DNA of 64,000 nucleotides from Eledone cirrhosa (Eukaryota). Position numbers and translations under genes: made by a program. The stretch spans positions 256,866,001 to 256,930,000 of the forward strand of contig OZ024742.1 in NCBI GenBank assembly GCA_964016885.1, read 5' to 3'. The notes beneath the pieces were generated by a model. It did not search any database. It was not told the DNA's origin and saw only the letters and a program-made list of their open reading frames with translations. Shown here in pieces: positions 4,760 through 61,159 of this stretch; the stretch's first letter is position 1; the number at the start of each line of letters is the position of its first letter.

Positions 4760-5369
4760 GGGAACACAAAGCAGGCTATGTTTAGAAAAAGCTAGCGAAT
4801 TTACAAATTAAGGTGTAACATGTGCTTACGCTGTATTTGACTGAATAGAATTAGTCTGTTAGTTCGGATTTTAGAAAACCCTCTGAATGTAAAAAAAGGA
4901 TGAGATAATTGACGTACAGGAGATACGGACCAATATATTTGGTTTGCCGGATCAATGTTTTGCTATTACACAAAAATGCCACCCATTATAATTGTGAAAA
5001 TATATATGTGTATATATATATACATGTGTATATATATATACACATATATGTGCGTACCTCTCATTATTGTCTCAAACTTCCACACGGTCGAGTAGCCAGG
5101 GAAGTATAGTAACTGCTTTTAAGCAAACACTATAACCACTATAACCACTTTCAGTCAACCTTGCCACCCCCTGTAACCTCGGTATCATGTATTAATTTCT
5201 CCCTCCGCCTTCTGAGATATTTTCCACTGCTACAAGGGATTTAGTCCCCTTTTTTGACCAGTGTATCACGAGATAATCTCTCCCTCCACCTTTTTGAAAT
5301 TTTCTCGCTTGCTACGAACGTGTCTGTAAATCGCTCTTCCCCTGAGGAGTTCCCTTGAGAAGATGGTTG

Positions 5370-9395: not shown

Positions 9396-9576
9396 TGTTT
9401 CTACTTTAGGCACAAGGCCAGCAATTACCCAGTGCATTACTGGTACTTTATGTTATCGACCCCGTAAGGATGTAAAGCAAAGTCAACCTCGGCGGGATTT
9501 GAACTCAGATCGTAAAGGGCCGTAACTATGTTGGAAAGCATGGCGTCCGACCCTCTACCGATATTGCCAAATCACC
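9396..9576 (-). mobile_element. tRNA-derived SINE (Meta-domain-like core) with 18-bp TSD
   Basis: Direct repeat ACCATTAGATATAATAAT at 9378-9395 and 9577-9594. The minus strand has the B-box GAGTTCAAATCC and the core CATCCTTACGGGGTCGATAACATAAAGTACCAG. Homologous to 44369-44548. Confidence 0.85.
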
Positions 9577-9660
9577 ACCATTAGATATAATAATACCATT
9601 AAAAAAACATTCCAGAAAAAATCATTTTTTAGACCAAGGCTACACGACCCACGACACCCG

Positions 9661-14420: not shown

Positions 14421-15080
14421 TGTAATAAACAACATAAGGCAATTATTTCATTTACCAGTGGTTTCTTAAAAGCAAAAAAATGTTGCTTTCAATCATCAGA
14501 ATGAAAAAATCCTGGTATATTTATTGACGTTGGATTTTAAAAACAAAAATGCAATCTATATGAAAGTGAGGCTGGAAAAGGAAGACGGAAATGAAAAATA
14601 AAATAAAAACACACATGCAAAGACACACACACACACAATTATATACATACACATATATATATATATATATGCATACACCATACATACACACACACACACA
14701 ATCATACGTATATACACACGTATATACATACACATACATACACACATATATACACGCATACATACGCATGCACAAAAATAGAAATAAATACACACACCTC
14801 TACATACTCACACACACAAATAGATATAAGAAAAAATATATCTAATAATAAAAAATAAAAATGAATATAAAGACTATTATAATGTTGACAGCGATACAGG
14901 CAACAAATAAATGAACATACATACGTGGTAAGCAATACACACAAATGCACGTACACATACATACGTAACAATAAATACATACACACACTCTCACACATAA
15001 ACACATAAATATACATATACAAATACATAAACACATACATACACATACACAATTACATACACACACACATATACAAATAT

Positions 15081-15341: not shown

Positions 15342-16800
15342 AGTTATATTTAAATTGTTGGGTTACAACTAGTAAATATTTATAACTGATATAAAAGCAC
15401 TCAACAAGTACGATATTAAATAAATGGAAACTATATTTATAAAACCATATTTATTTCATTATATATATTTCAGGGATATCATATTAACAATATGTTATGC
15501 CTTCCTCAGCCAAAATACAATATAGACAGTTTTATTGATAAATAGATTTGACATACCGTTCAACATCGACTTGTATTTGAGAAAGTTGATTTGGCAGTGA
15601 AAAAAATTGTAAACAGAAAGAAAGAAAGAGAGAAAGAAGGAAAGAAAGAAAGAAAATGAAGAAAAAGAAGAAAAAGAAGAAATGCATGTAACAAAATAGA
15701 GAGATGGAAAGATAGATAAAGAGAAGAACTTCATGTAAAGAAACAGAGAGAGATATATATAAAGAGAGGAAATAGATAGAGATAGATATATATAGAGAAA
15801 AGTAGGTAGCTGGAACGTATCAATGATACATTTATTTATTTATTTATTTAGCTCTAGTATTAATGTAAGGGAGATATATGTGGTTAGGGAAGAAACCAGC
15901 CGTTATATAGAGAGAAAAATGAAAAGTAACCAGACATAGGCGAGGCATAATTTAAAAACCCTATGTTTTAATGTAGAAGTATTAGTACGTATAAAAACCA
16001 GGCGCTATAATGTAAATATCAGTATTCCTGAATGAGACACGTATCCACTATGTGTGAAAATTAATGATCTTATGTTTAGTTTTAAAAATTCATATGTTTA
16101 TATGATAACTACAAACATCGATGTGAATTTACGTGATCAATTCTGCAAATCTCTATTTCACACGGAGAACATTCTCATTGTGCTATAAAAATTTAAGTAT
16201 ACATATATGTGTATATATATACACATATATATAGAGTCTATATTAATTTTAACAATACTATTCTTGTCTTTACTCTACATGATTATCTATCAAGCAGAAA
16301 TAGAGAACAGATTTCAATATCAGAAACAAAAACAAAAAATAATAATGATAATAATAATAATAATAAATAATAATAAAATAGAAAACTCAAAAAAAAAATA
16401 TTACAAAAAAATATTACATATTAAAAATAAAAATATTAGAAAATATTACAATAATAAAAATCAACCCTTCAAAATTAATTGACAATATATTGCCAAGTTC
16501 ATTATAAGCATCAGAGTCGAAAACAGATAAAGCTAAAAATTATTTATCAAATCGCGTCTAGCAAAAATCATTTCAAAAAGTTTAGGATGCCCATTTGGTC
16601 TACATGTGTTCTTATATTTAATATAGAAGTTTATCTCGTGTAACGTTTATTCGAAATATTTGGAGCATCAACTTTTAGGGTAGTTTAATTTTTCATGAAG
16701 AATGTTTAAATAAAAATAAAAATAAAAAGAAGAATAAAAAGAAGAAATCGAAAGATTTATCGGCTAGTTTCCCAAATAATTATAAAACAAACTAAATATA

Positions 16801-18579
16801 CTACATTTTAAATTTAAATTTATATTTAAAAGTTGAGTTTAATCTATGTTTGCAGCAACTGAATAAATTTGTCCGTAGATTAAGGGAATTTTTAGATTTT
16901 AGTATAAAGAATATCTCCTCTGCGCAGAGGTCACATGTCTCAGAGGATGAATTAAAAGGAATCCCTCTTGAGACTATATTCCAAGCCGTCGAATATCTAA
17001 CGTTATCTAGCTTAAGTTGCCAGAGTACGCCTGATAGTGCTGTTGAAGATTTTTTGCTTGGATCTGTGAAAGAATTATTGTGGTTATTATAGCGAAGTTT
17101 AAATTCCGTCGATGTGGAACCGACGTAGTTAAAAGAATTAGAGTCAGTTTTAACATTACAATTGTATATTATATTTTTAACTAAGCAGTTGTTATTTAAC
17201 GGACATTTAGATCTATCTCTACAGTTACATTTGTTAACTTGTATATTATTTATGCTATTATCACTAGGTTTTAAGTTCCTATTATTTATTCTATTAATAT
17301 TTTGTGCTAAATTTTTGGTGGATGAGTAGGTTAATTTTATAGTATGTCTATTGAAAATTGAGTGATACCTATGTGTTCTAGGGAAGCGATTATCAAGAGC
17401 TTTAAAAAATAGTTTAGCGATGTGGGTTTTAATGTTTAGTGAGAAAGGGGGGGGGGGGGGCAAACCAGATTATTTTCCTAGTTCTATTTCTTTTTTGTCT
17501 TTTGGAATTATTGTAATGCTTTCTATTATATTTGTTAAGGTTGTTGCCGTAATTAAAATAGTTGTTATTTTGTTTAGTTTGTCTATCATTATCTATGTAC
17601 ATAATCTTATCACTATATCCTGCTCTAGCTAACGCTTCATTGTAGTACTGGGCTTTTTCGTCGAAAATCTTTCTATTAGACGAGATTCTAGAGATACGTT
17701 TTTGAACAGAGTTTACTATAGTGTTTTTGACAGATCTGGGGTGGTTAGAGTTAGAGCTGACATAGTTTAAGTTTTCATTCAACTTGTGAAAAGGATAGTG
17801 AAGACATGTGTTGAGATTTAATGTTATATCTAGGAAATTGACTATTCTATGGTTGTTCTCAATTTCTATTTTAAGATTAAAGTAATTAAAAAATTGTGTA
17901 ATTTGTTTTCTTTTTCTATTTAGTTCAGAGTTATTATTATCAATAAGTAAAAGCATGCCATCTCTATATAAACCTCCGGTAGTACCAGGTATTTTCCTAT
18001 GTAGCGAATTGATTAAAAATAAGCCCACAAGGTCAGTTACCTGAGCTGAGTCGGATGATCCCATAGTAATGTCAAAATTGCTATCTCTATCTGCTCTGGT
18101 CCATAGTTGGTCATTAAATTCTATCAATGTTTTCCTAGCCGATAATATAATGTGCATTTCATTGCTAGTTAGGTCTGTATGTTTGAATGCGTAATTTAGT
18201 GCCTTATTTAGTAGATTAGGGGTAATAGAAGAATAATAGTTAGCAATATCAAGTTGAATAAATTATTATTATTGTTATATTTAATTTGCTTAAACCACTC
18301 AACAACCTCTCCAGTTCCCTTCCACAAGCTCAGGTTAGGTAAACAATCCAAGTTCTTAATTTGCTGTATCACCCTGTCAAGAATGTTTTTGCTTAATTTG
18401 CCCAGGTCCGATTTTGATGGTGCGATCAATCTAACTGGCAAATCATTTTCAAAATTCCTTTTGTGATCTTTCATATTGATCTTCGGTTTCCTGGGCACGA
18501 AAGGTTGTGTTCTGTTCTCAATTTCCAACTCGTGCATTATACAAGATGCTTCGACATTCATTTTCTCAAGCTCGGCTTT
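16801..18579 (-). pseudogene. Inactivated mirror copy of the Naiad ORF
   Basis: Split into three ORFs (18208-18561, 17429-18157, 16801-17463) by frameshifts near 18260 and at an expanded G run near 17447-17460. Catalytic YRDD reads YRDG. Confidence 0.9.
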
Positions 18580-20628
18580 CTCAAAGTTTTCAAATCTAAA
18601 AGAAATCCACCCCCTAACAAACTTTTATCTGACTTTGAAAACGATATAATTTCTATCATACAAGGGGTCAAATTCAAGAGAAACTTCAAAGGCCAGGAAT
18701 ATCTGAAAGGCATTAAGGATAATATTGAGAGCTTAGAGAAAACTGAGAAGATCTTGGTGAAATCTGACAAGACCAACAACCTCTATGGAGTGCAGAAAGA
18801 CATGTATAATGGCCTCATACTGAAGGAACTGAGGAAAAAGTACAAGGTAGCAGATAAAGCCGAGCTTGAGAAAATGAATGTCGAAGCATCTTGTATAATG
18901 CACGAGTTGGAAATTGAGAACAGAACACAACCTTTCGTGCCCAGGAAACCGAAGATCAATATGAAAAATCACAAAAGGAATTTTGAAAATGATTTGCCAG
19001 TTAGATTGATCGCACCATCAAAATCGGACCTGGGCAAATTAAGCAAAAACATTCTTGACAGGGTGATACAGCAAATTAAGAACTTGGATTGTTTACCTAA
19101 CCTGAGCTTGTGGAAGGGAACTGGAGAGGTTGTTGAGTGGTTTAAGCAAATTAAATATAACAATAATAATAAGTTTATTCAACTTGATATTGCTAACTAT
19201 TATTCTTCTATTACCCCTAATCTACTAAATAAGGCACTAAATTACGCATTCAAACATACAGACCTAACTAGCAATGAAATGCACATTATATTATCGGCTA
19301 GGAAAACATTGATAGAATTTAATGACCAACTATGGACCAGAGCAGATAGAGATAGCAATTTTGACATTACTATGGGATCATACGACTCAGCTCAGGTAAC
19401 TGACCTTGTGGGCTTATTTTTAATCAATTCGCTACATAGGAAAATACCTGGTACTACCGGAGGTTTATATAGAGATGACATGCTTTTACTTATTGATAAT
19501 AATAACTCTGAACTAAATAGAAAAAGAAAACAAATTACACAATTTTTAAATTACTTTAATCTTAAAATAGAAATTGAGAACAACCATAGAATAGTCAATT
19601 TCCTAGATATAACATTAAATCTCAACACATGTCTTCACTATCCTTTTCACAAGTTGAATGAAAACTTAAACTATGTCAGCTCTAACTCTAACCACCCCAG
19701 ATCTGTCAAAAACACTATAGTAAACTCTGTTCAAAAACGTATCTCTAGAATCTCGTCTAATAGAAAGATTTTCGACGAAAAAGCCCAGTACTACAATGAA
19801 GCGTTAGCTAGAGCAGGATATAGTGATAAGATTATGTACATAGATAATGATAGACAAACTAAACAAAATAACAACTATTTTAATTACGGCAACAACCTTA
19901 ACAAATATAATAGAAAGCATTACAATAATTCCAAAAGCCAAAAAAGAAATAATACTAGGAACATAATCTGGTTTGCCCCCCCTTTCTCACTAAACATTAA
20001 AACCCACATCGCTAAACTATTTTTTAAAGCTCTTGATAATCGCTTCCCTAGAACACATAGGTATCACTCAATTTTCAATAGACATACTATAAAATTAACC
20101 TACTCATCCACCAAAAATTTAGCACAAAATATTAATAGAATAAATAATAGGAACTTAAAACCTAGTGATAATAGCATAAATAATATACAAGTTAACAAAT
20201 GTAACTGTAGAGATAGATCTAAATGTCCGTTAAATAACAACTGCTTAGTTAAAAATATAATATACAATTGTAATGTTAAAACTGACTCTAATTCTTTTAA
20301 CTACGTCGGGTCCACATCGACGGAATTTAAACTTCGCTATAATAACCACAAGAAATCTTTCACAGATCCAAGCAAAAAATCTTCAACAGCACTATCAGGC
20401 GTACTCTGGCAACTTAAGCTAGATAACGTTAGATATTCGACGGCTTGGAATATAGTCTCAAGAGGGATTCCTTTTAATTCATCCTCTGAGACATGTGACC
20501 TCTGCGCAGAGGAGATATTCTTTATACTAAAATCTAAAAATTCCCTTAATCTACGGACAAATTTATTCAGTTGCTGCAAACATAGATTAAACTCAAATTT
20601 TAAATATAAATTTAAATTTAAAATGTAG
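18463..20628 (+). CDS. Naiad-type PLE RT-GIY-YIG polyprotein; open frame but 5'-truncated (genuine sequence starts near 18580)
   Basis: Motifs KSDKT, VRLIAPSKS, LDIANYYSSI, FDITMGS, GLYRDD, VNFLDITLNL, SNHP, IIWFAPPFS, CNCR..CPL..CL, IIY..YVG, FKLRYNNH, CDLC and CKHR. The first ~39 aa are read from the antisense left arm. Confidence 0.93.
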   Translation: MIFHIDLRFPGHERLCSVLNFQLVHYTRCFDIHFLKLGFLKVFKSKRNPPPNKLLSDFENDIISIIQGVKFKRNFKGQEYLKGIKDNIESLEKTEKILVKSDKTNNLYGVQKDMYNGLILKELRKKYKVADKAELEKMNVEASCIMHELEIENRTQPFVPRKPKINMKNHKRNFENDLPVRLIAPSKSDLGKLSKNILDRVIQQIKNLDCLPNLSLWKGTGEVVEWFKQIKYNNNNKFIQLDIANYYSSITPNLLNKALNYAFKHTDLTSNEMHIILSARKTLIEFNDQLWTRADRDSNFDITMGSYDSAQVTDLVGLFLINSLHRKIPGTTGGLYRDDMLLLIDNNNSELNRKRKQITQFLNYFNLKIEIENNHRIVNFLDITLNLNTCLHYPFHKLNENLNYVSSNSNHPRSVKNTIVNSVQKRISRISSNRKIFDEKAQYYNEALARAGYSDKIMYIDNDRQTKQNNNYFNYGNNLNKYNRKHYNNSKSQKRNNTRNIIWFAPPFSLNIKTHIAKLFFKALDNRFPRTHRYHSIFNRHTIKLTYSSTKNLAQNINRINNRNLKPSDNSINNIQVNKCNCRDRSKCPLNNNCLVKNIIYNCNVKTDSNSFNYVGSTSTEFKLRYNNHKKSFTDPSKKSSTALSGVLWQLKLDNVRYSTAWNIVSRGIPFNSSSETCDLCAEEIFFILKSKNSLNLRTNLFSCCKHRLNSNFKYKFKFKM

Positions 20629-21900: not shown

Positions 21901-21975
21901 TATATTGTATTTTGTCTGAGGAAGGCATAACATATTGTTAATATGATATCCCTGAAATATATATAATGAAATAAA
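21901..21975 (+). ncRNA. Putative minimal type I hammerhead ribozyme in the PLE 3' repeat (mirror copy at about 15450-15525, minus strand)
   Basis: CTGAGGA (21916-21922), stem II AGG-C-ATA-A-CATATT/AATATG-A-TAT-C-CCT, then GAAA and palindromic ATAT(AT)-A. Stem I pairing is weak and offset. Confidence 0.6.
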
Positions 21976-25985: not shown

Positions 25986-27232
25986 ATATTAGAATTGGAG
26001 CTCTGAAATAGCAATATATATATGGATGTATATATAATGTATTTTGCAATACACTTTATGCTTAATTAAAAGCATTTTGAAGACCGTAAGCTATTGTTTT
26101 AAAGTAGTGACAAATTCACTCACTTTGATGTCAGCAAATAGGGGAGATAAGCCGACATGACATGTTTCGCTTTGATTGAAGCTTATCAAGGCCAACTACC
26201 CCACCTGTCTACTGAGATCAATGATGTTATATTCTTATAGAAATCTAGTAAATAATCAGGAGCTGATTATGCAGAGCGGTTGTTGGTCAGGCAGAAATTA
26301 AAAATTAGAATTGGAGCTCTGAAGTAGCAATATGGATGTATATATAATGTATTTTGCAATACACTTTATGCTTAATTAAAAGCATTTTGAAGACTGTAAG
26401 CTATTGTTTTAAAGTAGTGATAAATTCACTCACTTTGATCTCAGCAAACAGGGGAGATAAGCCGACATGCCATGTTTCGCTTTGGTTGAAGCTTATCAAG
26501 GCCAACTACCCCACCTGTCTACTGAGATCAATGATGTTATATTCTTATAGAAATCTAGTAAATAATCAGGAGCTGATTATGCAGAGCGGTTGTTGGTCAG
26601 GCAGAAATTAAAAATTAGAATTGGAGCTCTGAAATAGCAATATATATATGGATGTATATATAATGTATTTTGCAATACACTTTATACTTAATTAAAAGCA
26701 TTTTGAAGACCGTAAGCTATTGTTTTAAAGTAGACAGGTGGGGTAGTTGGCCTTGATAAGCTTCAACAAAAGCGAAATATGTCATGTCGGCTTAATTCCC
26801 CTGTTTCCTGAGATCAAAGTGAGTTAATTTGTCTCTACTTTAAAACAATAGCTTACGGTCTTCAAAATGCTTTTAATTAAGCATACAGTGTATTGCAAAA
26901 TACATTATATATACATCCATATATATATTGCTATTTCAGAGCTCCAATTCTAATTTTTAATTTCTGCCTGACCAACAACCGCTCTGCATAATCAGCTCCT
27001 GATTATTTACTAGATTTCTATAAGAATATAACATCATTGATCTCAGTAGACAGGTGGGGTAGTTGGCCTTGATAAGCTTCAACCAAAGCGAAACATGTGA
27101 TGTCGGTTTATCTCCCCTGTTTGCTGAGATCAAAGTGAGTGAATTTGTCACTACTTTAAAACAATAGCTTACGGTCTTCAAAATGCTTTTAATTAAGCAT
27201 AAAGTGTATTGCAAAATACATTATATATACAT

Positions 27233-27237
<5 letters not shown>
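25986..27237. repeat. About 310-bp unit in tandem (about 2.4 copies, plus strand) that flips into about 1.6 inverted copies
   Basis: TTAGAATTGGAGCTCTGAA recurs at about 25989, 26306 and 26615. The strand switches near 26731. Mirrored 85-aa ORFs at 26354+ and 26957-. (TA)n flanks. Confidence 0.9.
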
Positions 27238-27282
<45 letters not shown>

Positions 27283-30309: not shown

Positions 30310-31212
30310 GACGTAAAATAAGAACATATTAAAAATTAACTTACTTACTAAAATGTTCACTCCAACTAATTAGTTTGTGTAATGGGATAAAGATAGTTAC
30401 GCAATGTAACTGTCGAGAATTCATTACGTCATCAGGGAGTCTATTCTCAGCTAAGTCTCCAGGCAATGCGCGGACACTAGGGACTCATATAAAAATAATA
30501 ATAATTCGGTGGATGGAACAGCTTGCGGGGACTGAATTCCAAAGCACTGAAAAAGTTCACTGTCTCTGGTCAAATGGCAGATTCTATTGAACCACCTAGG
30601 TACTATGACATAACTTATGTATTTGCTAGCATTAGCGTACATCTGTACGCATATGTCGGTAAATATACTAATTCTCTATATTTATCTCCAAATTATTTAT
30701 TCGTTGATCAAACCTGCCAAATCCACTACTAACTTATTGTAGTGGTAGTAGGCTTTTGTCATTTTACCACCCCACTTCTTCCGACTAGCCTCAGTGTCAC
30801 GTGATTGATTCTTTAACATTTGCCATTTGACCAGAGACAGTGAACTTTTTCAGTGCTTTGAAATTCAGTCCCCGCTAGCTGTTCCATCCACCGAATTATT
30901 ATTATTTTTATATGAGTCCCTAGTGACCGCGCATTGCCTGGAGACTTAGCTGAGAATAGACTCCCTGATGACGTAATGAATTATCGACAGTTACATTGCG
31001 TAACTATCTTTATCCCATTACAGAAACTCATTAGTTGGAGTGAACATTTTAGTAAGTAAGTTAATTTTTAATTTTTAAAATTTTCTTATTTTACGTCTTT
31101 CATATAATTGTTCGGCATCCTCCTGCTTTGAACCACCTAGGTACTATGACATAACTTATGTATTTGCTAGCATTAGTGTACATCTGTACGCATATGTCGG
31201 TAAATATACTAA

Positions 31213-31319: not shown

Positions 31320-32083
31320 CCTATTTATTGAAATATGTATATATTTCAGTATGCTTCCATAGGCGGTATGCCGGTTGTGCACTCTATGCTCTTACAGAGC
31401 AGAGTATGATAGAATAGAAAACGAAAAATCAGTGATGCTTCTGAACTCAATGAATTGTGTGTTACAATTGTTTCGCTGGCGGACAGCTCGAGACGCGATC
31501 ATTGTGTGGATCTATGTGATTCTGGACCCGCAAGCTCGACGGACACGTCTAATGATATCAGAGCATATTCTCTCACTGGGATATCTGACCTGCATGGAGC
31601 AGTACCGTCAACAACTTTACTCTCTTAGCGCGTCCTGTGACTGGAAGCTGGTTGGCTACGTCATCATAATTCTGACCACAAGTACCAGACCGCTGACCAT
31701 CAGGACTTTAGCTGTCCCATGTCTGCTACACTTCAATAAATTACTGCTGTATTTGGTAGTTCACACATCAACGCGCTCGCACACACATATACACAACCAC
31801 ACACACACAATCACACAGAAAACAACACTCGCACGCATAGTCGCCCACTATACACACACATTTAAGGAGAACATACAACCATATACACATAAGCATACAT
31901 GCTTCCATAGAGGCACGTACACACACAGACACATGGCCACATGCCTATATACATCAACATACACACACACACATGTCCATACACATGCATACGCGTATAT
32001 ATACCCGTACACACAAACAAATATAGACATATACATAGCTCCTCCCCCTTCACCCACGCACACACATATATATACACACCTAC

Positions 32084-32119
<36 letters not shown>

Positions 32120-32522
32120 TCACACACAAATACACACTCGCTCGCAAACACACATATATACACACAAACAAGCCATTTCCGTACCTAGGTGCTTGTACAC
32201 ACACACACAATGGTTCATATACACTCTTACAAATATGCGCATATTCATATACACTCATTGTCAGTGTTGAACAAATGAGCAACGATGGTTGCTAGACACT
32301 GTACGGCTTAATTCGGGATGTTTGTTTACAAACACACCGATCATTATAATAAATGTTTGGTGAATCCATACGTACATATATATGTGTATGCATGTATGTA
32401 TATATATATATATACATACTACTGTACGTCTGTATACATATATGTATGTACGTATACATTCTTATATTTAAGTAACAGCCGTACCAAGAGTGAGAAATGA
32501 AATTTCGTTTCATTTTTTCGTT

Positions 32523-32572
<50 letters not shown>

Positions 32573-35500
32573 ATATTAAAAAAATATACATATAACGGCA
32601 CATAAAGATACACAGTGGGCTATACATGAAAGGGTATATGTGCCTACAGAGTTGTTGTTACGTTGTGAACATGGATCAATCCACGTATGGAATGTTCGCG
32701 CAAGGCCACACAATGTGCGTTCATGGCATTACAGTAAATAGTATGCGCATACCGTACATAGAAAATGCGTGCAGAATATATATAAAAGAGAAGGAACGTG
32801 TATGCATATGCGATAGTGCACAAGAGAAGCATGAAGTAAACACGTGGGTTTGTATACGGAAAATATATTAGGTGTTACAAAATGGAATGGGTGGAGATTA
32901 TTATGCTCCTCTATAAGTAGAGCGCTTACAGAGATTCGCCATGACAAAATTCCATTACTCTTCCCCATTAAAGGACATCCCGATGTCTTCTGACAGCATT
33001 TACATGAGCCTACTGATACACCACACCAACTATTTCGTTAGACGCCTGAGATGGCGCGCATTTCACCACGACAGAAGGACACATCAACCCGCACCCGATA
33101 ATCCTCAGGACCGCATAAAACGGATCTTTAGATCAAGGCGACACCCACCCCATAACGGACAGCTGGAAGAATTTGAAAAGCGTATCATCAGCATCGTCGA
33201 ATCATCAAATTCCGAAGAAATAATACACGACATACTGATTATCTCCGGAGATTGAGCTCCACAATCAAAAGCATGGAAGAATACCCGCATTTTTCTTGTG
33301 CTCTCGGGAAAAACTGGTAATGTATACATGCTCGACCGATTTACATACAACGACTGCATCGGGAAAGATGTTAGGAAAAACTACAGGACCACAGGACAGG
33401 ACAACTTAGAAAACATTAACGCCACGACCCAAAAAATAATGACTGGACTAGGACAGAACAATATGTACCCAGAAAACTTCGGATATTCATTAAAGAATCA
33501 TAAATTAGACTTTAGAACTAATCTACCTGTTAGGCTAATAGCACCCTCCAAATCGGACATAGGTACGACCAGCAAGAAAATCATAGACAGAAAACCTACC
33601 GGTAGTTTGGAAAAAAACTAGGCTTAGCTTATGGACATCAACAAGGAGGTAATTGACTGGTTCTCGCTAATAGATAGCAAACAGCAGGTACATTTTATTC
33701 AATTAGACATAGCTAATTACTACGCTTCAGTATCACCAGTAATCGTGTAGAAGGCCCTCATGAGCGCCATGGCCAAGTCCACCCTCACTAGGAAGGAGGC
33801 AAGCCTCTTAATAGCAACGAGAAAGACGCTAATTAGCTTCGAAGATAAATTATGGGAGAGGTGGGACAGATCCGACAGTTTTGACATTACCATGGGGTCG
33901 AGCGACTCTGCGCAAGTGACGGAACTGGTGGGAATCTATCTCCTCCAACGATTAGCGGAGGAGATTCCAGGGATCGGTGGGGGAATATACCGAGACGATG
34001 CACTGTTTACCTTCCGTTACCTAAACCCCAGCCAGCTGGAGCGTATGAGGAATCGCATATCGAACTTTTTAAAGCAACACAGCTTATCCTTGATGATAGA
34101 TCCTAACACTAAGACGGTGAATTTCCTGGACGTTATCCTGGAAATGAATACGAGCATACACCGACCTTATCACAAGCCCAATGAGATCCTGCAATATGTG
34201 ATAAGACAATCGGACCACCCCATGTCAGTCATAGGAGCAATAGTTAAATGAGTATCCAAACGCGTATCCACCCTGTCGGCCAACGCAGACGTGTTCAACC
34301 AGCACGCCAACTATTATAATGAGGCACTGCACAGGGCCGGTTACACAGAAACCATAGTGTACTCCACGGACAGGGAAGTGCCTTGCGTCGAGGCATGCGG
34401 ATACGACAATAGCAGTAGTACATCCATAGGTAGAGGGAACGACCCGGAATTAGTTTCCAGGTATACGAGTAGCAGCATAGATCACCTCAAGGACACACGA
34501 CCGACAATAAGACAGACGAAGACACACACGGGCTCCAGACCGCCCAGTACACGGGTCCTTACCCTGTCCCTAGAAATAGGGACAGGGTAAAGACATGTAC
34601 GGCCGTGGAACCCTGTAGTGGGAACACCCGGCCCCGTAGCAATGATATAGCCCCGACAACAGCACCACATAGCATTAACGAGACTAATAGTAGAGCCGAC
34701 AATACAAAACGGAATACCTCAGTAAGCGAACGGCGTAACCCCGACGCACACGGTAGACATATAGATAACGGCAACATATAGGACGAAATAACGGGCGGGA
34801 AAAACCCGAGACGGACACCTGACCCAACACAGATTCACGCTACTACACACACACGAAGGAACAAGACAAGGTCGAAGACCTTTACATGGTTTAACGCGCC
34901 GTATTCTAAGCATTACGAGGCCTCTTCTTCCGAGCGTTGGACGAGTGCTTCCCGCCGTCGACCAGATACCAGAAGATTTTCAACCGCCACACGGTGAAAT
35001 TCTCCTCCTCCAGCGCACCTAACATGGAAAACTACATCGCCAAAACCAGCGGCGAAGATAGGGAACCGTCAACCGTTAACCGCGGCGGCCGAATGACCGT
35101 CCATCGTAGCCCAGATGGCCCCTTGCAAACTGGTATTCCAAAAACGACCCGGCCCATGCGGCGGCAGCCACACCCGCGGAAGACGAAACAATCCAACGCC
35201 GAGTGGAATGAGTAGCGGAGGGGAGACCACTGTGTCGGCAGAACAACACCCGGAGAATCGGGAGAGCGCCGTGGCAGATCACGGGCCAGGCGTCCAAAAT
35301 AAATAACAGAACGTGCAACTGCAGCGCGGAAACACAGTGCCCTCTGCAGGGAAGATGCCTAACGAAGGGCCTGCTATATAAATGTGTGGTTAGCACGCAC
35401 AATAAAAAGCGCACCTACATCGGCGCAACATCCACGACCTTTAAATCGCGCATGTATAACCACACAAACTCTTCAAGGACCGGAGCGAGAGGCACTCTAC

Positions 35501-36333
35501 TAGGCTGGCGGAGCTGGTGTGGGACTTGAAAGAAAAAGTCACCCCGATGCCCTCAACTGGAGTATCGTTCGGCACGCGAATGCATATTCGGCTGGAAATA
35601 GAAAGTGTAGGCGATGCCTATCCGAGGCTATTGAGATAGTCAGACTGAAGGATGATGCGGTCAACCTGAAATCGGAAATAATCATGACGTGCAGACACCA
35701 AAGAAGGTGCACACTCTCCGCATGGAATCCACCGGGCAGCCCAACCTAAAGGCATGCGGCGGAGCGCACGCCGACCAGAGCGGCGAAACTGATTTGAAGG
35801 CTCAGACACCATACACTGTTAACTATATATGCCCCGTGGGGTAAGCCGAAATAACCCAGGATGCCTACCCGACTCTACACGTCACCCTAGGCAAAAACAT
35901 CACTTGAGCCGGGACAGGCTGACCCGGATGCCATTGATATTCAGTCAAGTGCCTCACACCAATAAGAGACTATACCTCAACCATAGTGACATATTCCAGT
36001 ATAGCCCCCCCCCCCCCCCCCGCCCTGTATGTGTATCTTTTCTGTGGAGAGTGCATAATCTCCACGCATTCCATTTTGTAATACCTAATGTATTTTCCGT
36101 ATACAGACGCACGTGTGTATTTCATGCTTCTCTTGTGCACTATCTCATATGCATACACATTCCTACTTTTTATTTTATATATACACGCATTTTCTATATA
36201 CGCATTTTCTATGCACGCATCTTCTATCTACGATCTGCGCATACTATTTACTCTAATACCATGAACTCACATTATGTGGCTTTCGTGAACATTCCATACG
36301 TGGATTGATCCATGCTCGCAACGTAACAACATA

Positions 36334-36403
<70 letters not shown>

Positions 36404-37323
36404 CGTGTCTTTTATGTAAAATATATATTTATAACGAGATGCATCCTTTCATGTATGACCCATTATGTATCTTTATATGACTTTGTGTGTATATTGTTTA
36501 TATGTATATATATATATATAATTTGTCTATGCGTGCGCGAGTGTGTATATGAATATGTACGTATGGATTCACCAAACATTTAATATAATGCTCGGTGTGT
36601 TTGTAAACAAACATCCCGAATTAAGCCGTACAGTGTCTAGCAACCATCGTTGCTCATTTGTTCAACACTGACAATGAGTGTATATGAATATGCGCATATT
36701 TGTAAGAGTGTATATGAACCATTGTGTGTGTGTGTGTGTGTGTGTGTACAAGCACCCATGTCGGGAAAGGGCTTGTTTGTGTGTGTATATATGTCATTGT
36801 GCGAGCGAGTGTGTATTTGTGCGTGTATATATGTATATGGGTACGTGTGTATATATGTGTGTGCGTGGGTGGAGGGGTGTGGTCTATGTATATGTCTGTA
36901 CTTGTTTTTATGTACGGGTATATATACGCGTATGTAGAGTACGAACATGTGTGTCTGTGTGGGTACGTGCCTCTCTGGATGCATGTAAGCGTATGTTTAT
37001 ATGTTTATCTGTTCTCCTTAAATGTGTGTGTATAGCGGGCGTCTATGCGTACGACTGTCGTTATCTATGTGATTGTGTGTGTGTGGGTGTGTATGTGTTC
37101 GCGGGTGGATATGTGAACTACCAAACACAGCAGTAATTTATTGGAGTGTAGCATACATGGGACAGCGAATGCCCTGATGGTCAGCGGTCTGGTACCTGTC
37201 GTCAGAGTTATGATGACGTAGACAACAAGCGGCCGATCACGAGACACGCCAATAGGATGAAGTTTTTGACGGTACTGGCCCATGCAGGTCAGATGCATCA
37301 TTGATTTTTCGTTTTCTATTCTA
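31320..37323 (+). mobile_element. Full-length but decayed Naiad-type PLE with about 1.4-kb inverted terminal repeats
   Basis: Coding region 32941-35749. Segment 31410-32915 is a diverged reverse complement of 36045-37323 (shared ...NGSYTLLQICAYSYTLIVSVEQMSNDGC in ORFs 31375+ and 36637-). (TA)n flanks. Confidence 0.9.
32941..35749 (+). pseudogene. Naiad-type RT-GIY-YIG ORF with native N-terminus, multiple stops and frameshifts
   Basis: Motifs LKDIP, FVRRLRWRAF, VRLIAPSKSDIG, FDITMGSSDSAQV, GIYRDD, VNFLD, SDHP, IFNRHTVK, CNC..CPLQGRCL, YIGAT, CRRCLSE and CRHQ. Confidence 0.92.
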
Positions 37324-37350
37324 TATATATATATATATATATAAATATAT

Positions 37351-40324
37351 ATATAGTAGAATAATCGAGTATCGAAAAATCGGCGCACGAGTTCACGATA
37401 AACAAAATTCGAGATGAGCGGCAGAGGGCTCTATAATTCAAATAAATTAGAGCTATAACTATCGTTAAAATACCGTCACACGTAGAATATGTCTACAATC
37501 AACCAAATAACCGAAAAGTTCGATATGGAAGATTCGGGACACTCAGATAAATTATCAATAAATCAATAAATGAAATGAATGTAAAATGCATACCCGGACC
37601 CACTAGAGAGATGGAATATCTAGCTTCTTGGGTTTCTGTAAATCCTTAAACCGTCATCTATCAGCTCATATAAAAATATAAGCCTTACAGATAATCGGGG
37701 GACTGGAGTTACTTCATCAACGAGCTTCGTCCGAATGGATAAAAAGATAAGACCCAGGCTAAAAATACGCACATGGATTTCAGCAAGGGAGATAACCTTT
37801 ATATCCGCAAAAATATTCGGAAAAATGTGGCAAAAACACATATCGAATAAGAGTGCTCAATAGACATGTTAAAATAAACAGGGGCTATTCATCATTTAAT
37901 AGAATCGACAAAAAATGAACAATAAAATTAACAGGTCAATAGCTAAGTCTAGAGCTAAATATAGTAGAATAATCGAGTATCGAAAAATCGGCGCACGAGT
38001 TCACGATAAACAAAATTCGAGATGAGCGGCAGAGGGCTCTATAATTCAAATAAATTAGAGCTATAACTATCGTTAAAATACCGTCACACGTAGAATATGT
38101 CTACAATCAACCAAATAACCGAAAAGTTCGATATGGAAGATTCGGGACACTCAGATAAATTATCAATAAATCAATAAATGAAATGAATGTAAAATGCATA
38201 CCCGGACCCACTAGAGAGATGGAATATCTAGCTTCTTGGGTTTCTGTAAATCCTTAAACCGTCATCTATCAGCTCATATAAAAATATAAGCCTTACAGAT
38301 AATCGGGGGACTGGAGTTACTTCATCAACGAGCTTCGTCCGAATGGATAAAAAGATAAGACCCAGGCTAAAAATACGCACATGGATTTCAGCAAGGGAGA
38401 TAACCTTTATATCCGCAAAAATATTCGGAAAAATGTGGCAAAAACACATATCGAATAAGAGTGCTCAATAGACATGTTAAAATAAACAGGGGCTATTCAT
38501 CATTTAATAGAATCGACAAAAAATGAACAATAAAATTAACAGGTCAATAGCTAAGTCTAGAGCTAAATATAGTAGAATAATCGAGTATCGAAAAATCGGC
38601 GCACGAGTTCACGATAAACAAAATTCGAGATGAGCGGCAGAGGGCTCTATAATTCAAATAAATTAGAGCTATAACTATCGTTAAAATACCGTCACACGTA
38701 GAATATGTCTACAATCAACCAAATAACCGAAAAGTTCGATATGGAAGATTCGGGACACTCAGATAAATTATCAATAAATCAATAAATGAAATGAATGTAA
38801 AATGCATACCCGGACCCACTAGAGAGATGGAATATCTAGCTTCTTGGGTTTCTGTAAATCCTTAAACCGTCATCTATCAGCTCATATAAAAATATAAGCC
38901 TTACAGATAATCGGGGGACTGGAGTTACTTCATCAACGAGCTTCGTCCGAATGGATAAAAAGATAAGACCCAGGCTAAAAATACGCACATGGATTTCAGC
39001 AAGGGAGATAACCTTTATATCCGCAAAAATATTCGGAAAAATGTGGCAAAAACACATATCGAATAAGAGTGCTCAATAGACATGTTAAAATAAACAGGGG
39101 CTATTCATCATTTAATAGAATCGACAAAAAATGAACAATAAAATTAACGGGTCAATAGCTAAGTCTAGAGCTAAATATAGTAGAATAATCGAGTATCGAA
39201 AAATCGGCGCACGAGTTCACGATAAACAAAATTCGAGATGAGCGGCAGAGGGCTCTATAATTCAAATAAATTAGAGCTATAACTATCGTTAAAATACCGT
39301 CACACGTAGAATATGTCTACAATCAACCAAATAACCGAAAAGTTCGATATGGAAGATTCGGGACACTCAGATAAATTATCAATAAATCAATAAATGAAAT
39401 GAATGTAAAATGCATACCCGGACCCACTAGAGAGATGGAATATCTAGCTTCTTGGGTTTCTGTAAATCCTTAAACCGTCATCTATCAGCTCATATAAAAA
39501 TATAAGCCTTACAGATAATCGGGGGACTGGAGTTACTTCATCAACGAGCTTCGTCCGAATGGATAAAAAGATAAGACCCAGGCTAAAAATACGCACATGG
39601 ATTTCAGCAAGGGAGATAACCTTTATATCCGCAAAAATATTCGGAAAAATTTGGCAAAAACACATATCGAATAAGAGTGCTCAATAGACATGTTAAAATA
39701 AACAGGGGCTATTCATCATTTAATAGAATCGACAAAAAATGAACAATAAAATTAACGGGTCAATAGCTAAGTCTAGAGCTAAATATAGTAGAATAATCGA
39801 GTATCGAAAAATCGGCGCACGAGTTCACGATAAACAAAATTCGAGATGAGCGGCAGAGGGCTCTATAATTCAAATAAATTAGAGCTATAACTATCGTTAA
39901 AATACCGTCACACGTAGAATATGTCTACAATCAACCAAATAACCGAAAAGTTCGATATGGAAGATTCGGGACACTCAGATAAATTATCAATAAATCAATA
40001 AATGAAATGAATGTAAAATGCATACCCGGACCCACTAGAGAGATGGAATATCTAGCTTCTTGGGTTTCTGTAAATCCTTAAACCGTCATCTATCAGCTCA
40101 TATAAAAATATAAGCCTTACAGATAATCGGGGGACTGGAGTTACTTCATCAACGAGCTTCGTCCGAATGGATAAAAAGATAAGACCCAGGCTAAAAATAC
40201 GCACATGGATTTCAGCAAGGGAGATAACCTTTATATCCGCAAAAATATTCGGAAAAATGTGGCAAAAACACATATCGAATAAGAGTGCTCAATAGACATG
40301 TTAAAATAAACAGGGGCTATTCAT
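37351..40324. repeat. Tandem array of a 608-bp unit, about 4.9 near-identical copies, embedded in (TA)n
   Basis: The same 73-aa ORF recurs at 37620, 38228, 38836, 39444 and 40052 (period 608). Only two variant sites were noticed (AACAGGTC/AACGGGTC and AATGTGGC/AATTTGGC). Confidence 0.97.
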
Positions 40325-40584: not shown

Positions 40585-40629
40585 CAAAATATTAATAGAT
40601 GGATACATTCACATATTCAAAATATATGT

Positions 40630-40700
40630 TTCATTATATATATTTCTGGGGTACTCTGTTGTTTTTTCAGTACGACCTCATCAGATAACATACATAAATT
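40630..40700 (-). ncRNA. Putative minimal hammerhead ribozyme (3' repeat copy)
   Basis: The minus strand reads CTGATGA-GGTCGTACT..AGTACCCCA-GAAA-TATA. Stem II is partly degraded relative to the copy at 44675. Confidence 0.5.
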
Positions 40701-41756: not shown

Positions 41757-42829
41757 GAAAGTATTTCAGATCTCAAATTTAGAAAATTTAAGACATAAAA
41801 TGAGGATTCAAAATCCAAACTAAAGGTATTTAGTCAATCAAAGGATTATCTTACTATATAAAAGAATCAATATTTATTTCCTAAGGTGAGGTAAAACATT
41901 TTACATAATACTAATAAAAACAATAATTATTAATAAAAGTCAATATCTTTTCTCACTCAGTCAATGTTTTTCCTAAATTTATATGATGCTTGAAATATAT
42001 TTGTAACTTTATGGAGGCAATTTGAAAATAATTCACTGTTTTTATTAATTAAATTACCATGATTAGCAATTATTAATAGAGTCTCAACATTGCAAAAATT
42101 GCAGTTAGGTGAAATGGAATGCTTCCAATGGGATTCTGAGTTTCTAACCTTAATCCAAGAAATTGAGTATTTCATATTTTTCTCTTTTAAAGACCATATT
42201 AATTGTGATAATGAGGTGGAAAATGTTTTATCTGAATTAGAAAAAGAATGTTTATGATTGGAAAATCTAAGTTTATAGTTCGATGAAGTTGCACCTATGT
42301 AGTTATATTATTATTTGTTTTAATGGTGCATTTATATACTAAATTCTTATCAAGGCAGTTATTTTGTAAAGGGCATTCAGATTTCCTTCAACAGTTACAG
42401 TTAAATTTCATGCTATTTCTATAATCCAAACTGATCATATTATCATTGTTAATATTTGTAGGAGTTCTACAATGTGTTTAAATTATTGTTATTGTTATTC
42501 TCAATAACTATTGTATTATTATTATTACTATTGATGTTGTTTTGAATTAAGAATTTTGCTATTAATTTTAGCAATATTTTGAGCCATATTCATGGTTGTT
42601 GAGTACGAAAGTTTAACTGTGTCTATTGAAGATAGATTAATACTTATGTGATTTAGGGAAACATTTATCTAAGGCTTAAAAAGAATAAATGTGCTAAAGG
42701 GGTTTTAATACCTAAAGATGCTGGTGGAGCATACCAAATAATAGATCTAGTTCTAATTTATTTCACCGATTTATTCTCCAAGTTGTTATTTTTATTTATA
42801 TTTATATTTTTATTCTTACAGTCATCTTT

Positions 42830-44015
42830 GGAGAGGCAGGTTAAATTGCCAGGGGTCTGGTTCGGTCCGGACCTCCAGACGGACAAAAACTGGGACGAGG
42901 TGACGAGCAGGGTGGCTTCTCTCACCCAGAAATGGGCCGAGAGGAAGCTATCCCTGAAAGGTCGAGCGGAGGTGGCTAACGCGTACATCGCGTCCGTCAT
43001 CTGCTACCGCCTGACCGTCGTACCTTGTCCTAAGCCTCGCCTGACTGCGCTGGAGCGTTTGCTCTTTCGCTTTTTGTGGAAGGGACGCGCTCCGATGGTC
43101 AGGCGGTCCATCTGTTGTCAACACCCGCTACGTGGAGGGCTGGGCATGCCGTGGCTGATGATGCGCAGGCACGCGCTCAGGCTACGACATCTCCACCTCT
43201 TCCTCGACGGTGATCAGGTGTGGTCGCCGTTTGCTAGACACGTATTTCCCCAGCTCGTTTCCTTGACGGAGCTGCAGTCCTGGGTCAAGCGAAGACCGAG
43301 AGGGAGCGCCTGGAGACTGGAATGTCTTCAGGCGCTCACAGCCCTCGACCAATCGGGCAATGTGATCGGTGGAAACTCCACCTCGGCGTTCTATAGAGGA
43401 TTAGTGGAGGGGAAGAGCGACGACGTACTTGGGGAAACTCTAGTCGTCAACGAAAATCAACTAGCCAATCTCTTCGGAAGAACTTTCGGGCCAGGGCCTA
43501 TGGACAACTTCCAGAAATCTCTGGCCTGGCAGTGCTACCGAGGAGCCTTGCCAGTTCGGGATAAACTCTACAGGCATGGAGGTGCCGTCAGCCGGGCATG
43601 TCTGAGATGCGCGCAGGGCGACGAAACCGTCCTGCACGCACTCTTCCAGTGTCCGAAAATTGCTGACTTGTGGGTTTATGTCGAACACCTGCTGTCGCGT
43701 TTAGGACGGATCCGGCTATCATCTGAGTCCATCGTGAGGATTGCCCCGCTTTCCTCCTTTAGCCGGGAAGGGCAGGCAGTTTTTATCTGTCTGGTGGCCA
43801 TGGCGAAAGAGATAGTATGGTGGACACGTTTGAAAGGGCTGAAGACGAGCACTTACCTCTTCGGTGATGCTCTGATTGCCTTTTTCAAATTTCATTTGAA
43901 AAGGAAAATCAGAGTAGAGAGGGAAGTGCTCTCTTCCCAGCATTTTGTTGAAAGATGGGTGAGAGAAGCAAGAATGGCCCGAGTGAATGGGCCTACTCTG
44001 AGTATATATCTGTAA
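42830..44015 (+). CDS. C-terminal part of LINE ORF2 (RT thumb and CCHC zinc finger), open frame, lacking EN and RT core
   Basis: Motifs W..RKLSLKGR, FLWKG, GGLGMP and CLRC...ETVLHALFQC, typical of the L1/Tx1 ORF2 C-terminus. The first ~16 aa of the listed ORF come from the flank. Confidence 0.85.
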
Positions 44016-44674: not shown

Positions 44675-44745
44675 TATGTATTTTATCTGATGAGGACGTA
44701 CTGAAAAATCAACACAGTACCTCCGAAATATATAAAATAAAACAT
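44675..44745 (+). ncRNA. Putative minimal type I hammerhead ribozyme
   Basis: TATTTTA-T-CTGATGA, stem II GGACGTACTG/CAGTACCTCC (9 of 10 paired), then GAA-ATAT-A-TAAAATA. Confidence 0.7.
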
Positions 44746-47954: not shown

Positions 47955-50330
<2,376 letters not shown>

Positions 50331-57117: not shown

Positions 57118-57253
57118 TATACATATTTGTAGTAAGGTTGCCTGGATGTGTCCATTGGTGGTATGCTAGTTGAGCACTTTATGTTCCTACAGAGCAGAGT
57201 ATAATACTATGGAAAACGAAGAATCAGTGATGCATCGGAACACACTTTATTAG

Positions 57254-57344
57254 CGTATTACAATTGTTTCCCCGGCGAACTGCTCGCGGTGCGATCTATT
57301 TGTGGATCGAACCTGACTCTGGATTCGCAAGTTCCTCAGATACG
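57254..57344 (-). ncRNA. Type I hammerhead ribozyme with extended stem II
   Basis: Minus strand: CGTAT-CTGAGGA-[about 62 nt closed by CTT.GCGAAT/GTTCGC.GGG]-GAA-ACAATTGT-A-ATACG. Complete core, 5-bp stem I and a perfect 8-nt palindromic stem III. Confidence 0.75.
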
Positions 57345-57402
57345 TCTAGTGACTTCGAAACAAATCCTCTGTCTATCTGTTCGCTTTGCTTCGAAGTCAC
57401 TA

Positions 57403-57497
57403 GACGTATCTGAGGAACTTACGAATCCAGAGTCAGGTTCGACCCACAAAGAGCTCGCACCTGGAGCTATTTGCCGGAGAAACAATCGTAATACGTT
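57403..57497 (+). ncRNA. Type I hammerhead ribozyme with extended stem II (mirror copy)
   Basis: GACGTAT-CTGAGGA (57410-57416)...GAA-ACAATCGT-A (57490)-ATACGTT. Stem II closure and the palindrome carry mismatches. Confidence 0.65.
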
Positions 57498-57559
57498 AAT
57501 AAAGTGTGTTCCGATGCATCACTGATTCTTCGTTTTCCATATTATATATATATTCTTTT

Positions 57560-59460
57560 TTCCATTAACATTACAAGGAGTCTGACGAGTCACGGATTAC
57601 AGAGTAGGGTCACATAAATATAGATCGAACATTGAGCAGATCAGTGGCAAAATGCGTGTCACCAACCAATAAACGTAACGAAGGAGTAACCAATCGTCCC
57701 TGATATCTTATTTCACCATAATACACTCTGCCCAGCTCTACATCTCGACTCTGAAGTGAACCTAAACATCGAGTGATCACCTACTCTTTACTAAGATATA
57801 TCTCTATGAAAAGTCCACTCTGATATAAAATCTGCTACTTCGTTGTAGAACATTTCTTCATTTACGGCCAAGACATTCTATGTTCCGAGAGTGGGATTGG
57901 TCCTGTGCAAATCCTTTCCTCACTTAAAAAAAGATTCAAGTCCAGACATCTCTTGATATGTAACATTTTTTGCGATGCTTGGTATTGCTATCCATAAGCA
58001 AATATTTAGCAGGACTAAACAGCCAAGTCCGCGATGCCCATCCTTAAATATCAAGCGACAGTATTACTCGAAATCGAATTGTATATATATGTATGAATAT
58101 ATGTATGAATTTATGTATGAATGAATGCATACATGCATGTATATATGTATGAATGAATGTATTTATGTACGTGTTTATGTATATATGTTTGTATGTTTGC
58201 ATATTTCTATAGAAAACCAACCTTGTTACATATAGTGCGTTGCTGAATCTCTATGTTTATGGGTTCACATACATGTGACATGCTGCCCAGTGACTTACAC
58301 TTCTTGAACAGGTTCTTCCGTTTATCCAACAGCTGGAACATACATCGTCAAAACCAACGGCGCACCATTTCCATTCACTATATATGATGTTTTCTCTTTA
58401 AATATACAGATTTAACTTTAAACTTTAAATGTGTTTATTGGAAATTTGTCCATTCATCGATCAATATTTCGCATCATAAATGACCTTGTTACAACTTTAT
58501 TCTTCCATGTTGCTTGAAACGTTTAACTAAGCTTTTCTCCATATTTGGCACAATGATGAATTAGGCAATAACTGTATACTTGATAGACATTCATACAATT
58601 ACTTACACACCAATAGGTTTCGAAAAAATGTCATATATTATATATAAAACATATCATACGTGATTAATCAAGAAGTGACATGTGCTATGTATAAAGTCTT
58701 GTTAATACTGTTGTTTATTATTATTATTCATAGCAAAGTTGTTATTGCTCTCTCAGTTATTATTATCGGTACCGTTATTGCAGGTATTACTACACATGAT
58801 AACACCCAGGCACTTATCGGGCAAATATTATAAAACCGACGAAGATATTTTCCATTTTATTTCGTTTCATCATGTTTTAATTTGCTTATATATTTTATTA
58901 TGAATATGTAGAAATAATCAGGCAGTGTACAGCCTATGAGATTATGAATGGTATAATACGTTCAGGTGTATCACTTACAAGGAAACGATGACCTACGAAA
59001 GTATTCTCTTGTCAGTCGGTCAAAATGTGGACAACTATAAAACATGCTACCCTTTGTAATGGGAAAAAATCTCAAGGTCCGGCGGTCCCATGACAAATAA
59101 ATGGTGGTTAGACCTTCTGGCAATAAGTAATTCAGGAGAAAAGAAGGCAAAAAATTGGTGGATAAAATAAGGAAAGGAGACGGGAAAGATTTCACGACAA
59201 CACAAGATCTGACTTGCACCTAAGATTAATGAACTGAGATGGGACATTCCTCCAATCAACAATAGCCTCATGACTAAAAGAATACTAAGTGAAGTGAATA
59301 AACTACTCTCGATTTAGCCTTTCAGAAATGCTACTCTTTCTTACTACAATTCCACTACGTATATTTGAAAGAAACAACACTGTGATGATCCAGAATGTTA
59401 TATATTGGTTTATCACACAATTAAAAATGTTCCTCAACATTGGAGGATAGCATAACTTTG
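57560..59460 (+). mobile_element. Possible very old CR1/Jockey-like LINE remnant
   Basis: Only faint motifs (VP.G..IGP-like near 57880, LMN.DGTFLQ near 59225). No continuous frame. Confidence 0.25.
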
Positions 59461-60859: not shown

Positions 60860-61133
60860 CTTAAAGCGTCCGTATGCGGTAGGCCGTATGAGCACTCGAT
60901 GCCCTCGTGGAGCAGAGTATGTTGTCCCAGAAAAAAGAGAATCAGTGTTGCGACGAAAGGAATTTATTGGACATAGGAAAATCTGCTTCGTAGAATCGAG
61001 ACGTATCCGACGACCGAGAGATTTCAGAGTCAGGTATGATCAACATATCGATCGTGCCTCGAGCTGGTCGCCTGAGAAACATTTGTAATATGTCCAATAA
61101 ATTCCTTTCGTCGCAACAATGATTCTCTTTTTT
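60860..61133. mobile_element. Short fold-back relative of the 57146-57541 element
   Basis: Inverted 45-bp ends at 60931-60975 and 61089-61133. Same GAGCAC...GAGCAGAGTAT tail. GACGTAT-CCGACGA...GAA-ACATTTGT-A-ATATGTC. Confidence 0.75.
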
Positions 61134-61159
61134 ATGTGATATATATATATATATATAGT

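Follow-up and report, generated by a model that had tools for sequence, protein, structure and literature searches.

The window that we analyzed, a stretch of 64,000 nucleotides of Eledone cirrhosa DNA (contig OZ024742.1), is microsatellite-rich animal DNA with many Penelope-like elements (PLEs) and inverted repeats. At 57140..57553 it holds an insertion made of two 5′-truncated retroelement 3′ ends, placed head to head and flanked by (TA)n tracts. The arms of this inverted repeat (57200-57550) are 87% alike and meet at a central junction at ~57381-57386, and the left arm alone continues into a "tail" of ~60 nt (57140..57199, minus strand) that closes with a small covarying hairpin. Reads end at 57553, where 448 and 522 reads, and 66 and 57 contigs, enter (TA)n.

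Each arm carries the layout of a type I hammerhead ribozyme (57252..57346 on the minus strand, 57403..57497 on the plus strand), with its parts in the order stem I, CUGAGGA, 62 nt, GAA, 8-nt stem III, A, stem I. The initial annotation had read both arms as CUGAGGA ... GAAA ... UA with a CGUAU/AUACG stem I, and all core nucleotides proved to be exact. Its stem II of about 60 nt measured 62 nt between the core halves on both arms, and the cut that it predicted after A57490 on the plus arm falls where the layout would place it; the corresponding predicted cleavage nucleotide of the minus arm is A57259. The minus-strand copy is the better of the pair, with an intact core, ACAAUUGU as stem III, and A.G at the first stem II position (10.1-11.1). 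The plus-strand copy also has an intact core and is otherwise decayed, with several broken stem II pairs and A.A at 10.1-11.1, and this position is thus unpaired on both arms. A palindromic stem III had been claimed for each strand; it was present on the minus arm but not on the plus arm, where stem III is ACAAUCGU, the palindrome is broken at 57487, and no self-duplex is predicted.

We compared the arms with DNA reads from four runs belonging to two studies, matched at 80% likeness, in which 0.21-0.24 of the sampled words were present. Read majorities were taken per column, unphased, from 40 of 213 variant rows, a set to which U4 and 10.1-11.1 do not belong. Against these majorities, the minus arm differs at 57281 and 57287 and the plus arm at 57463, 57469, 57472, and 57487. 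At the last of these positions the reads were nearly all T (5068/5122 of the depth, with 28 contigs, in X1; 159/159 minus-mate reads in X5), and the stem III change of the plus arm is therefore private to this locus. The minus-arm hammerhead was represented in more than 100 distinct contigs (107-108 at 57281-57287).

The type I core (CUGANGA, GAAA, and UH, in that order) was present on both 57-kb arms, and a three-helix arrangement with an open helix I was accompanied by covariation, as judged from sequences that are few and related. A strict pattern, requiring a stem I of at least 4 bp, an exact core, a spacer of 40-80 nt, and a perfect 8- or 10-nt palindrome, occurred twice in the window (57252-57346 and 5335-5444) and in none of 300 Markov simulations, so the hammerhead layout is not a product of chance. 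Helix I can be extended beyond an asymmetric loop that lies 7 bp out from the core, with 81% of cells paired, weakly so in the copy at 61 kb; no stem II partner for a tertiary contact with helix I was identified in the family copies. The word AAUAAA follows stem I (57496-57502 and equivalent positions) in four of the five copies, the fifth having AAUUCA, and it could act as a poly(A) signal or form the internal loop of helix I. Judged from these sequence features, the motif is likely to be a self-cutting RNA.

Five copies of the family, 49-87% identical to each other, lie within the window. Relatives had previously been noted near 31.5 and 61 kb, with covarying pairs and mutated cores, and both were present as described. 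The 31.5-kb copy (31456..31549, minus) combines G10.1-C11.1, a 61-nt stem II, and a perfect stem III palindrome with the mutated core CCGUCGA, and the 61-kb copy (61000..61094, plus) has a 62-nt stem II and the core CCGACGA. The latter lies inside a second inverted insertion (60860-61139), the other arm of which is without a hammerhead and which inverts at another point than the 57-kb pair. The fifth and most distant relative (57575..57667, plus), missed by the initial annotation, begins 22 nt past the 57-kb element, is 51-56% identical to both arms, and has a CUGACGA core, G10.1-C11.1, an unbranched 60-nt stem II, and a GUC triplet. Stem II thus spans 60-62 nt in all five copies, down to 49% identity. 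The 10.1-11.1 position is G-C in two of the five and unpaired in both 57-kb arms and the 61-kb copy; cores are altered in two (31.5 and 61 kb), with U4C, a substitution that lowers activity, in two copies; and none of the five window copies has the core, the first stem II pair, and the palindrome all intact. A search of the window with a model built from the five copies returned no sixth member, its lower-scoring hits being other hammerheads or microsatellites.

The reads present a more complete picture of the fifth copy's family. One contig was identical to 57560-57679 throughout. The window copy is without G12, and the read majority at 57649 is G (26236/28574 of the depth, or 92%, and 95 contigs), which restores GAAA. 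Majority C at 57653 and 57657 (38708/40526 and 52710/54506) makes stem III ACGCGCGU, which is perfect and is therefore a second 8-nt palindrome, different in sequence from the 57-kb one. Majority C at 57590 (937/971) gives a 5-bp GCCAC/GUGGC helix, and G at 57579 supplies the third pair of stem I; each of these five majorities accounts for 91-97% of X1 depth. Taken from unphased read majorities, the 57.6-kb family is by sequence a textbook hammerhead with CUGACGA, G10.1-C11.1, a GUC triplet, and a 60-nt arm, and these majorities are the strongest apparent sign of selection in the data.

Stem II has a consistent form in the five-copy consensus. From the core outward, a mismatch or G-C pair is followed by 2 bp, a mismatch, and a helix of 5 bp; beyond a bulge of 2 nt come CAG/CUG, a partly pairable internal loop (AGUC versus YGAG), ~9 bp, and a loop of 8 nt. 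Over the five copies, 83% of 142 cells are paired, compared with 21-37% when one side is slid by 1-3 columns. Six pairs have changed on both sides, and none of 500 shuffles of the five copies reached the observed covariation score, although this control leaves relatedness in and the same four to five related sequences also supplied the structure. The long stem II proposed by the initial annotation is thus backed by covariation near the core, within five related copies, and the distal helix covaries as well, with 86% of its cells paired. Identity over the four subfamilies is 79% in the core, 81% in the mid-arm, 44% in core-proximal stem II, 49-53% in the flanks, and 56% in the apical loop. The conserved mid-arm structure comprises the 2-nt bulge, the 3 bp, and the internal loop; on the minus arm, where the middle and tip of stem II occupy 57280..57323, it corresponds to 57315-57323 opposite 57280-57286. 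Of the 16 mid-arm columns, 11 are invariant, compared with 19 of the 66 remaining columns (P = 0.001 before and 0.049 after correction for the choice of window). Whole copies folded no better than shuffled ones (z of −0.74 to +0.63, 4/4), and isolated arms gave z of −1.4 to −2.9 (four copies, excluding the 31.5-kb one), with −2.87 for stem II of the 57.6-kb copy. We rejected a K-turn for the mid-arm loop, because the flanking helix is unpaired in the register that the K-turn consensus requires. Loop 2 of the Schistosoma hammerhead is CAAAUA; the 57-kb apical loop resembles it, but the resemblance was set aside because the other three subfamilies do not retain it.

The 31.5-kb copy connects the family to a coding element. 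It lies in an inverted, 5′-truncated terminal repeat with a tail (31340..32901, minus) that gives 79-81% inverted matches to 36055-37294. Next to it is a decayed Hydra-clade PLE open reading frame (32917..~35750, plus), encoding reverse transcriptase (RT) followed by GIY-YIG and interrupted by stops and frame changes, and then the 3′ terminal repeat of the element (36055..37332, plus), which ends in (TA)n without a tail. From this repeat, a hammerhead segment of ~144 nt has been deleted between two TCAGA words (~37289-37293), both flanks being kept. Because the 31.5-kb copy sits in the inverted repeat and its partner retains both flanks, the motif is placed in the same sense as the ORF and near the 3′ end of the element. 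In general, 50-110 nt separate the motif from the element 3′ end, and the sense relationship to a Hydra-type ORF is seen at one locus. The Hydra clade is defined by RW(K/R), (D/G)KT, a CxCX5C linker, a C-terminal GIY-YIG domain, and CxxC and CxH near the end. Assigned by motifs, the 32917-35750 ORF conforms to this definition: it has RLRWRA, GKT, YRDD, CNCSAETQC, YIG, CRRCLSE, and CRH, together with a GIY-YIG match (E = 0.0013), and is 50% identical over 165 amino acids (aa) to the ORF at 18418-20628. The 57-kb subfamily is therefore, through its 74% identical 31.5-kb sister and as far as sequence can indicate, likely to belong to the Hydra clade.

The insertions themselves behave as Hydra-clade insertions do: (TA)n, an inverted truncated copy, a tail at one end, and a 3′ sense hammerhead were found, with three of three inverted pairs of the hammerhead family having the tail on the left arm alone. 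PLE tails are described in the available text of PMC8557442 and PMC11167929, and a one-end tail is a known PLE signature. The three tails (57140-57199, 31345-31405, and 60860-60925, all minus) each have two small terminal hairpins, the last of which reads CCG/UGG, CCA/UGG, and CCG/CGG around a 4-nt loop; by analogy with the stem-loop reported in PMC11167929, it may possibly be a reverse-transcription start.

The apparently intact ORF at 18418-20628 (plus; 736 aa) is also of Hydra type, with DKT and CxCX5C, and lies inside a 3.2-kb inverted repeat whose copies are 99% identical, so this insertion is young. It resembles animal protein clusters in the Atlas (score 0.98) and had no Pfam match. The hammerheads of this young element (21909-21972, plus, and 15453-15516, minus) have a 31-nt stem II and AUAUAUAU as stem III. 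Elsewhere in the window are a decayed PLE (9526-12446, plus) with a C-terminal GIY-YIG domain (E = 3.8e-06) and a CxxxxCxxC linker, which under the definition in PMC8557442, as far as its text was available, make it Neptune-like, and a 452-aa C-terminal fragment of a non-LTR retrotransposon (42657-44015, plus; zf-RVT, E = 8e-09). Five 608-nt tandem repeats, 99.7-99.8% identical, occupy 37331-40324 and begin where the 3′ repeat of the Hydra element ends; the repeat unit contains no convincing hammerhead.

Other hammerhead layouts are scattered through the window. An unrelated long-armed hammerhead at 5335-5444 (plus), with a GUC triplet and a stem III that is a perfect palindrome of 10 nt, lies next to a minus-strand PLE RT fragment (5683-6000). 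A 13-nt tandem duplication gives it two alternative 5′ halves, one with a C3/G8 core and a 75-nt span and the other with a U3/A8 core, a 62-nt unbranched arm, and G10.1-C11.1. A second inverted pair (30357-30442, minus, and 30958-31043, plus) has a hammerhead layout on each strand, with an unbranched stem II of 51 nt; the 10-nt palindrome of stem III is perfect on the minus arm, where CAAA stands in place of GAAA. Type I layouts at 40628-40691 (minus), 44680-44743 (plus), and 14446-14506 (minus) have stems II of 31, 31, and 27 nt. Nested inverted and direct repeats at 25988-27244 contain several short hammerheads, with a palindrome of 6 nt as stem III and a core of the U3/A8 type, and weak Rfam HH9 matches fall at 26133-26203 (minus) and 26746-26801 (plus). 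Short-armed layouts at ~48120-48180 (minus) and ~50080-50135 (plus; stem III ACGUACGU) lie in an 88% inverted repeat that encloses a fragment of a PLE endonuclease. Stem II spans of unrelated hammerheads in the window are thus 27, 31, 51, and 62-75 nt; three sequence-unrelated families with arms of 51-62 nt or longer occur in 64 kb, and 8-nt stem III palindromes are found in other hammerhead families of the window too.

Searches beyond the window recovered no relatives. None of the four Rfam matches on 57130-57760 (E up to 10) was to a hammerhead family (clan CL00010), the microRNA matches corresponding to microsatellites and the inverted repeat. A family-specific pattern had no match in metagenome contigs and none in viral contigs. 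A looser mid-arm pattern matched at least 119 metagenome loci and 27 viral loci, and among the 146 loci listed the five-copy model scored none below E = 0.13; 2 of these 146 had loose core words nearby, with the stems absent, and were dismissed as chance. The family motifs were not found in the available supplement text of Craig 2021 (PMC8557442), in which line breaks can hide matches.

What would a transcript of the 57-kb insertion do? Because the truncated ends meet head to head, transcription entering from either side would produce the antisense arm before the ribozyme. In the predicted fold of the insert transcript, the antisense arm takes up 84 or 87 of the ribozyme's 95 nucleotides in pairs, and no pairs form within the hammerhead itself, so the head-to-head layout would silence the ribozyme. 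The initial annotation was right that transcription in either direction would yield one ribozyme plus its antisense, but the predicted outcome is a long hairpin that buries the ribozyme. We infer that 5′ truncation together with inversion produced the insertion and that it would be dead, with a transcript from either side folding a hairpin of ~165 bp over the ribozyme; most likely it is a dead by-product. The joints at which the strand switches vary between contigs, each occurring in at most one contig per run and at differing places (15 of the 21 joint rows listed).

Any activity would thus be expected of the parent element. The 8-nt stem III forms no hairpin and is predicted to form an 8-bp self-duplex (−6.4 kcal/mol), and the predicted monomer hammerhead fold lies 4-11 kcal/mol above the free minimum in four of four copies. 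Dimer cleavage, low rates, and protein help have been reported for PLE hammerheads in the available text of PMC11167929 and PMC6765202. A monomer would close its 8-nt stem III poorly, and two copies would form an 8-bp helix; two copies in a tandem transcript might then pair through stem III and cut slowly, with assistance from protein, after the GUA or GUC triplet. We consider it probable, from the sequence features described, that the 57-kb feature represents inverted, truncated 3′ ends of a PLE, likely of the Hydra clade, whose parent cleaved tandem RNA as a palindrome dimer with an unbranched arm of 60-62 nt. As a weaker suggestion, the mid-arm loop might serve as a docking site for an element protein or for stem I, aiding a slow fold. 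A larger joint reading is tentative, and we think it rather unlikely to hold: that the mid-arm loop binds the RT of the element or docks helix I, gating cleavage; that long-armed PLE hammerheads are common and overlooked here; and that this class, missed by Rfam and by spacer-capped descriptors, could explain some "half core" elements.

Several other explanations compete with the proposal of a cleaving parent with a long, unbranched arm. The long arm may be a tolerated expansion without function, only the first few stem II pairs being of consequence, and this is a substantial possibility, if one that we would not favor. Stem II length is free among the unrelated hammerheads of the window (27, 31, 51, and 62-75 nt), mid-arm conservation is marginal after correction, and the apical loop is only 56% identical; on the other hand, the 60- to 62-nt span is held in five of five copies, the mid-arm is as conserved as the core, and the distal helix covaries. 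Alternatively, the 57-kb subfamily may no longer cleave, its relic core accompanying a structure kept, for example, for recognition by the RT. The unpaired 10.1-11.1 position in both arms and the 61-kb copy, the altered cores of two copies, and the complete loss of the motif from the repeat ending at 37.3 kb would suit such a history, as would the finding, given in the available text of PMC11167929, that cleavage is dispensable for in vitro insertion in another clade. However, the 57-kb arms keep every core nucleotide, the core of the 57.6-kb family is, by read majority, a textbook one, and mismatches at 10.1-11.1 are common in the Hydra clade (PMC8557442, from the available rows), and we therefore judge loss of cleavage to be unlikely.

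Two further readings concern the architecture of the locus. One takes the 410-nt palindrome as a mobile unit, with a ribozyme on each strand that processes transcripts of both polarities. A hammerhead layout is indeed present on each strand, and the arms are of high copy number (107-108 contigs at 57281-57287), but the strand-switch joints differ between contigs, the 61-kb pair inverts elsewhere and has one hammerhead, and the hairpin would prevent the ribozyme from folding whichever strand is transcribed; this we regard as very improbable. The other, proposed in the initial annotation, makes stem II a branched domain, and we give it almost no credence. The decayed plus arm, taken alone, does fold as two side-by-side hairpins, but no helix encloses them, four of the five copies fold as a single hairpin, and the five-copy consensus is one irregular, unbranched hairpin, with a multiloop in only 0-1% of 1000 sampled folds for each of the five copies.

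The family bears on the job that hammerheads do in PLEs: their cleavage is slow, that of one is protein dependent, and insertion in vitro proceeds without it (PMC11167929, as far as its text was available). With its large arm, separable and conserved in part, this natural family would offer a direct handle on protein assistance. The published Naiad core search allows a spacer of 7-17 nt (PMC8557442, available text); given this limit and the lack of an Rfam match, ribozymes in such genomes may be undercounted. Were the arm neutral, the family would be a modest addition to known variety.

Many PLE hammerhead variants were reportedly described by Lunse et al. in 2016. The initial annotation had called the present family a distinct structural variant, which holds for the length of the arm and its conserved middle but not for the palindromic stem III or the opposite-strand pair, both of which were already known. 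No description of the long-armed form was found in the available texts of the PLE hammerhead literature (including PMC6765202, PMC6155905, and PMC7229834), and variant surveys may contain it. The possibility of a non-LTR retrozyme was rejected, as the copies here are inverted or single rather than the head-to-tail tandem repeats of the definition in PMC7229834, as available.

The closest likeness is to Hydra-clade hammerheads as represented in the available portions of PMC8557442, with which the family shares a type I layout, a 3′ position, (TA)n, inverted 5′-truncated copies, and a one-end tail. All 26 Hydra rows in File S2 of Craig 2021 have a self-complementary stem III of 9-10 nt (hand count), stem II begins with U.U or U.C in 15 of them, and their core halves are 12-26 nt apart. 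Here, in contrast, the span is 60-62 nt, over double the norm, stem III is 8 nt without a central nucleotide, 10.1-11.1 is A.G or A.A in the 57-kb arms, and there is a mid-arm loop that those rows do not list; U.U or U.C is the best-tolerated mismatch at 10.1-11.1 according to the part of PMC3088659 available. The same source (Perreault 2011) describes palindromic stems III, with a dimer helix of up to 10 bp. The metazoan minimal PLE hammerheads of Cervera and de la Peña 2014 (PMC4209133, available text) share a palindromic helix III, a proposed dimer, and an enlarged helix II; opposite-strand pairs 100-700 bp apart are reported there, as found here, and the D. virilis hammerhead has a bulge in helix II, as this family does. 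Their helix II is 6-8 bp and their helix III 0-4, versus ~20 bp and 8 nt here. Poseidon of Anolis (Frangieh 2024, PMC11167929) has a hammerhead upstream of a tail, two reverse-transcription starts in a stem-loop, and cleavage that needs protein, but it belongs to another clade and has a minimal ribozyme overlapping the ORF start, and the available text describes no long arm. The spike-moss element PLE-X1 (PMC8557442 File S2) comes from a plant, is endonuclease-less and rDNA targeted, has a short or different stem III, and shows no likeness to the arm by eye. Nevertheless, its stem II spans of 54 and 48 nt (hand count), flagged as deviating in that file, mean that long arms have a precedent.
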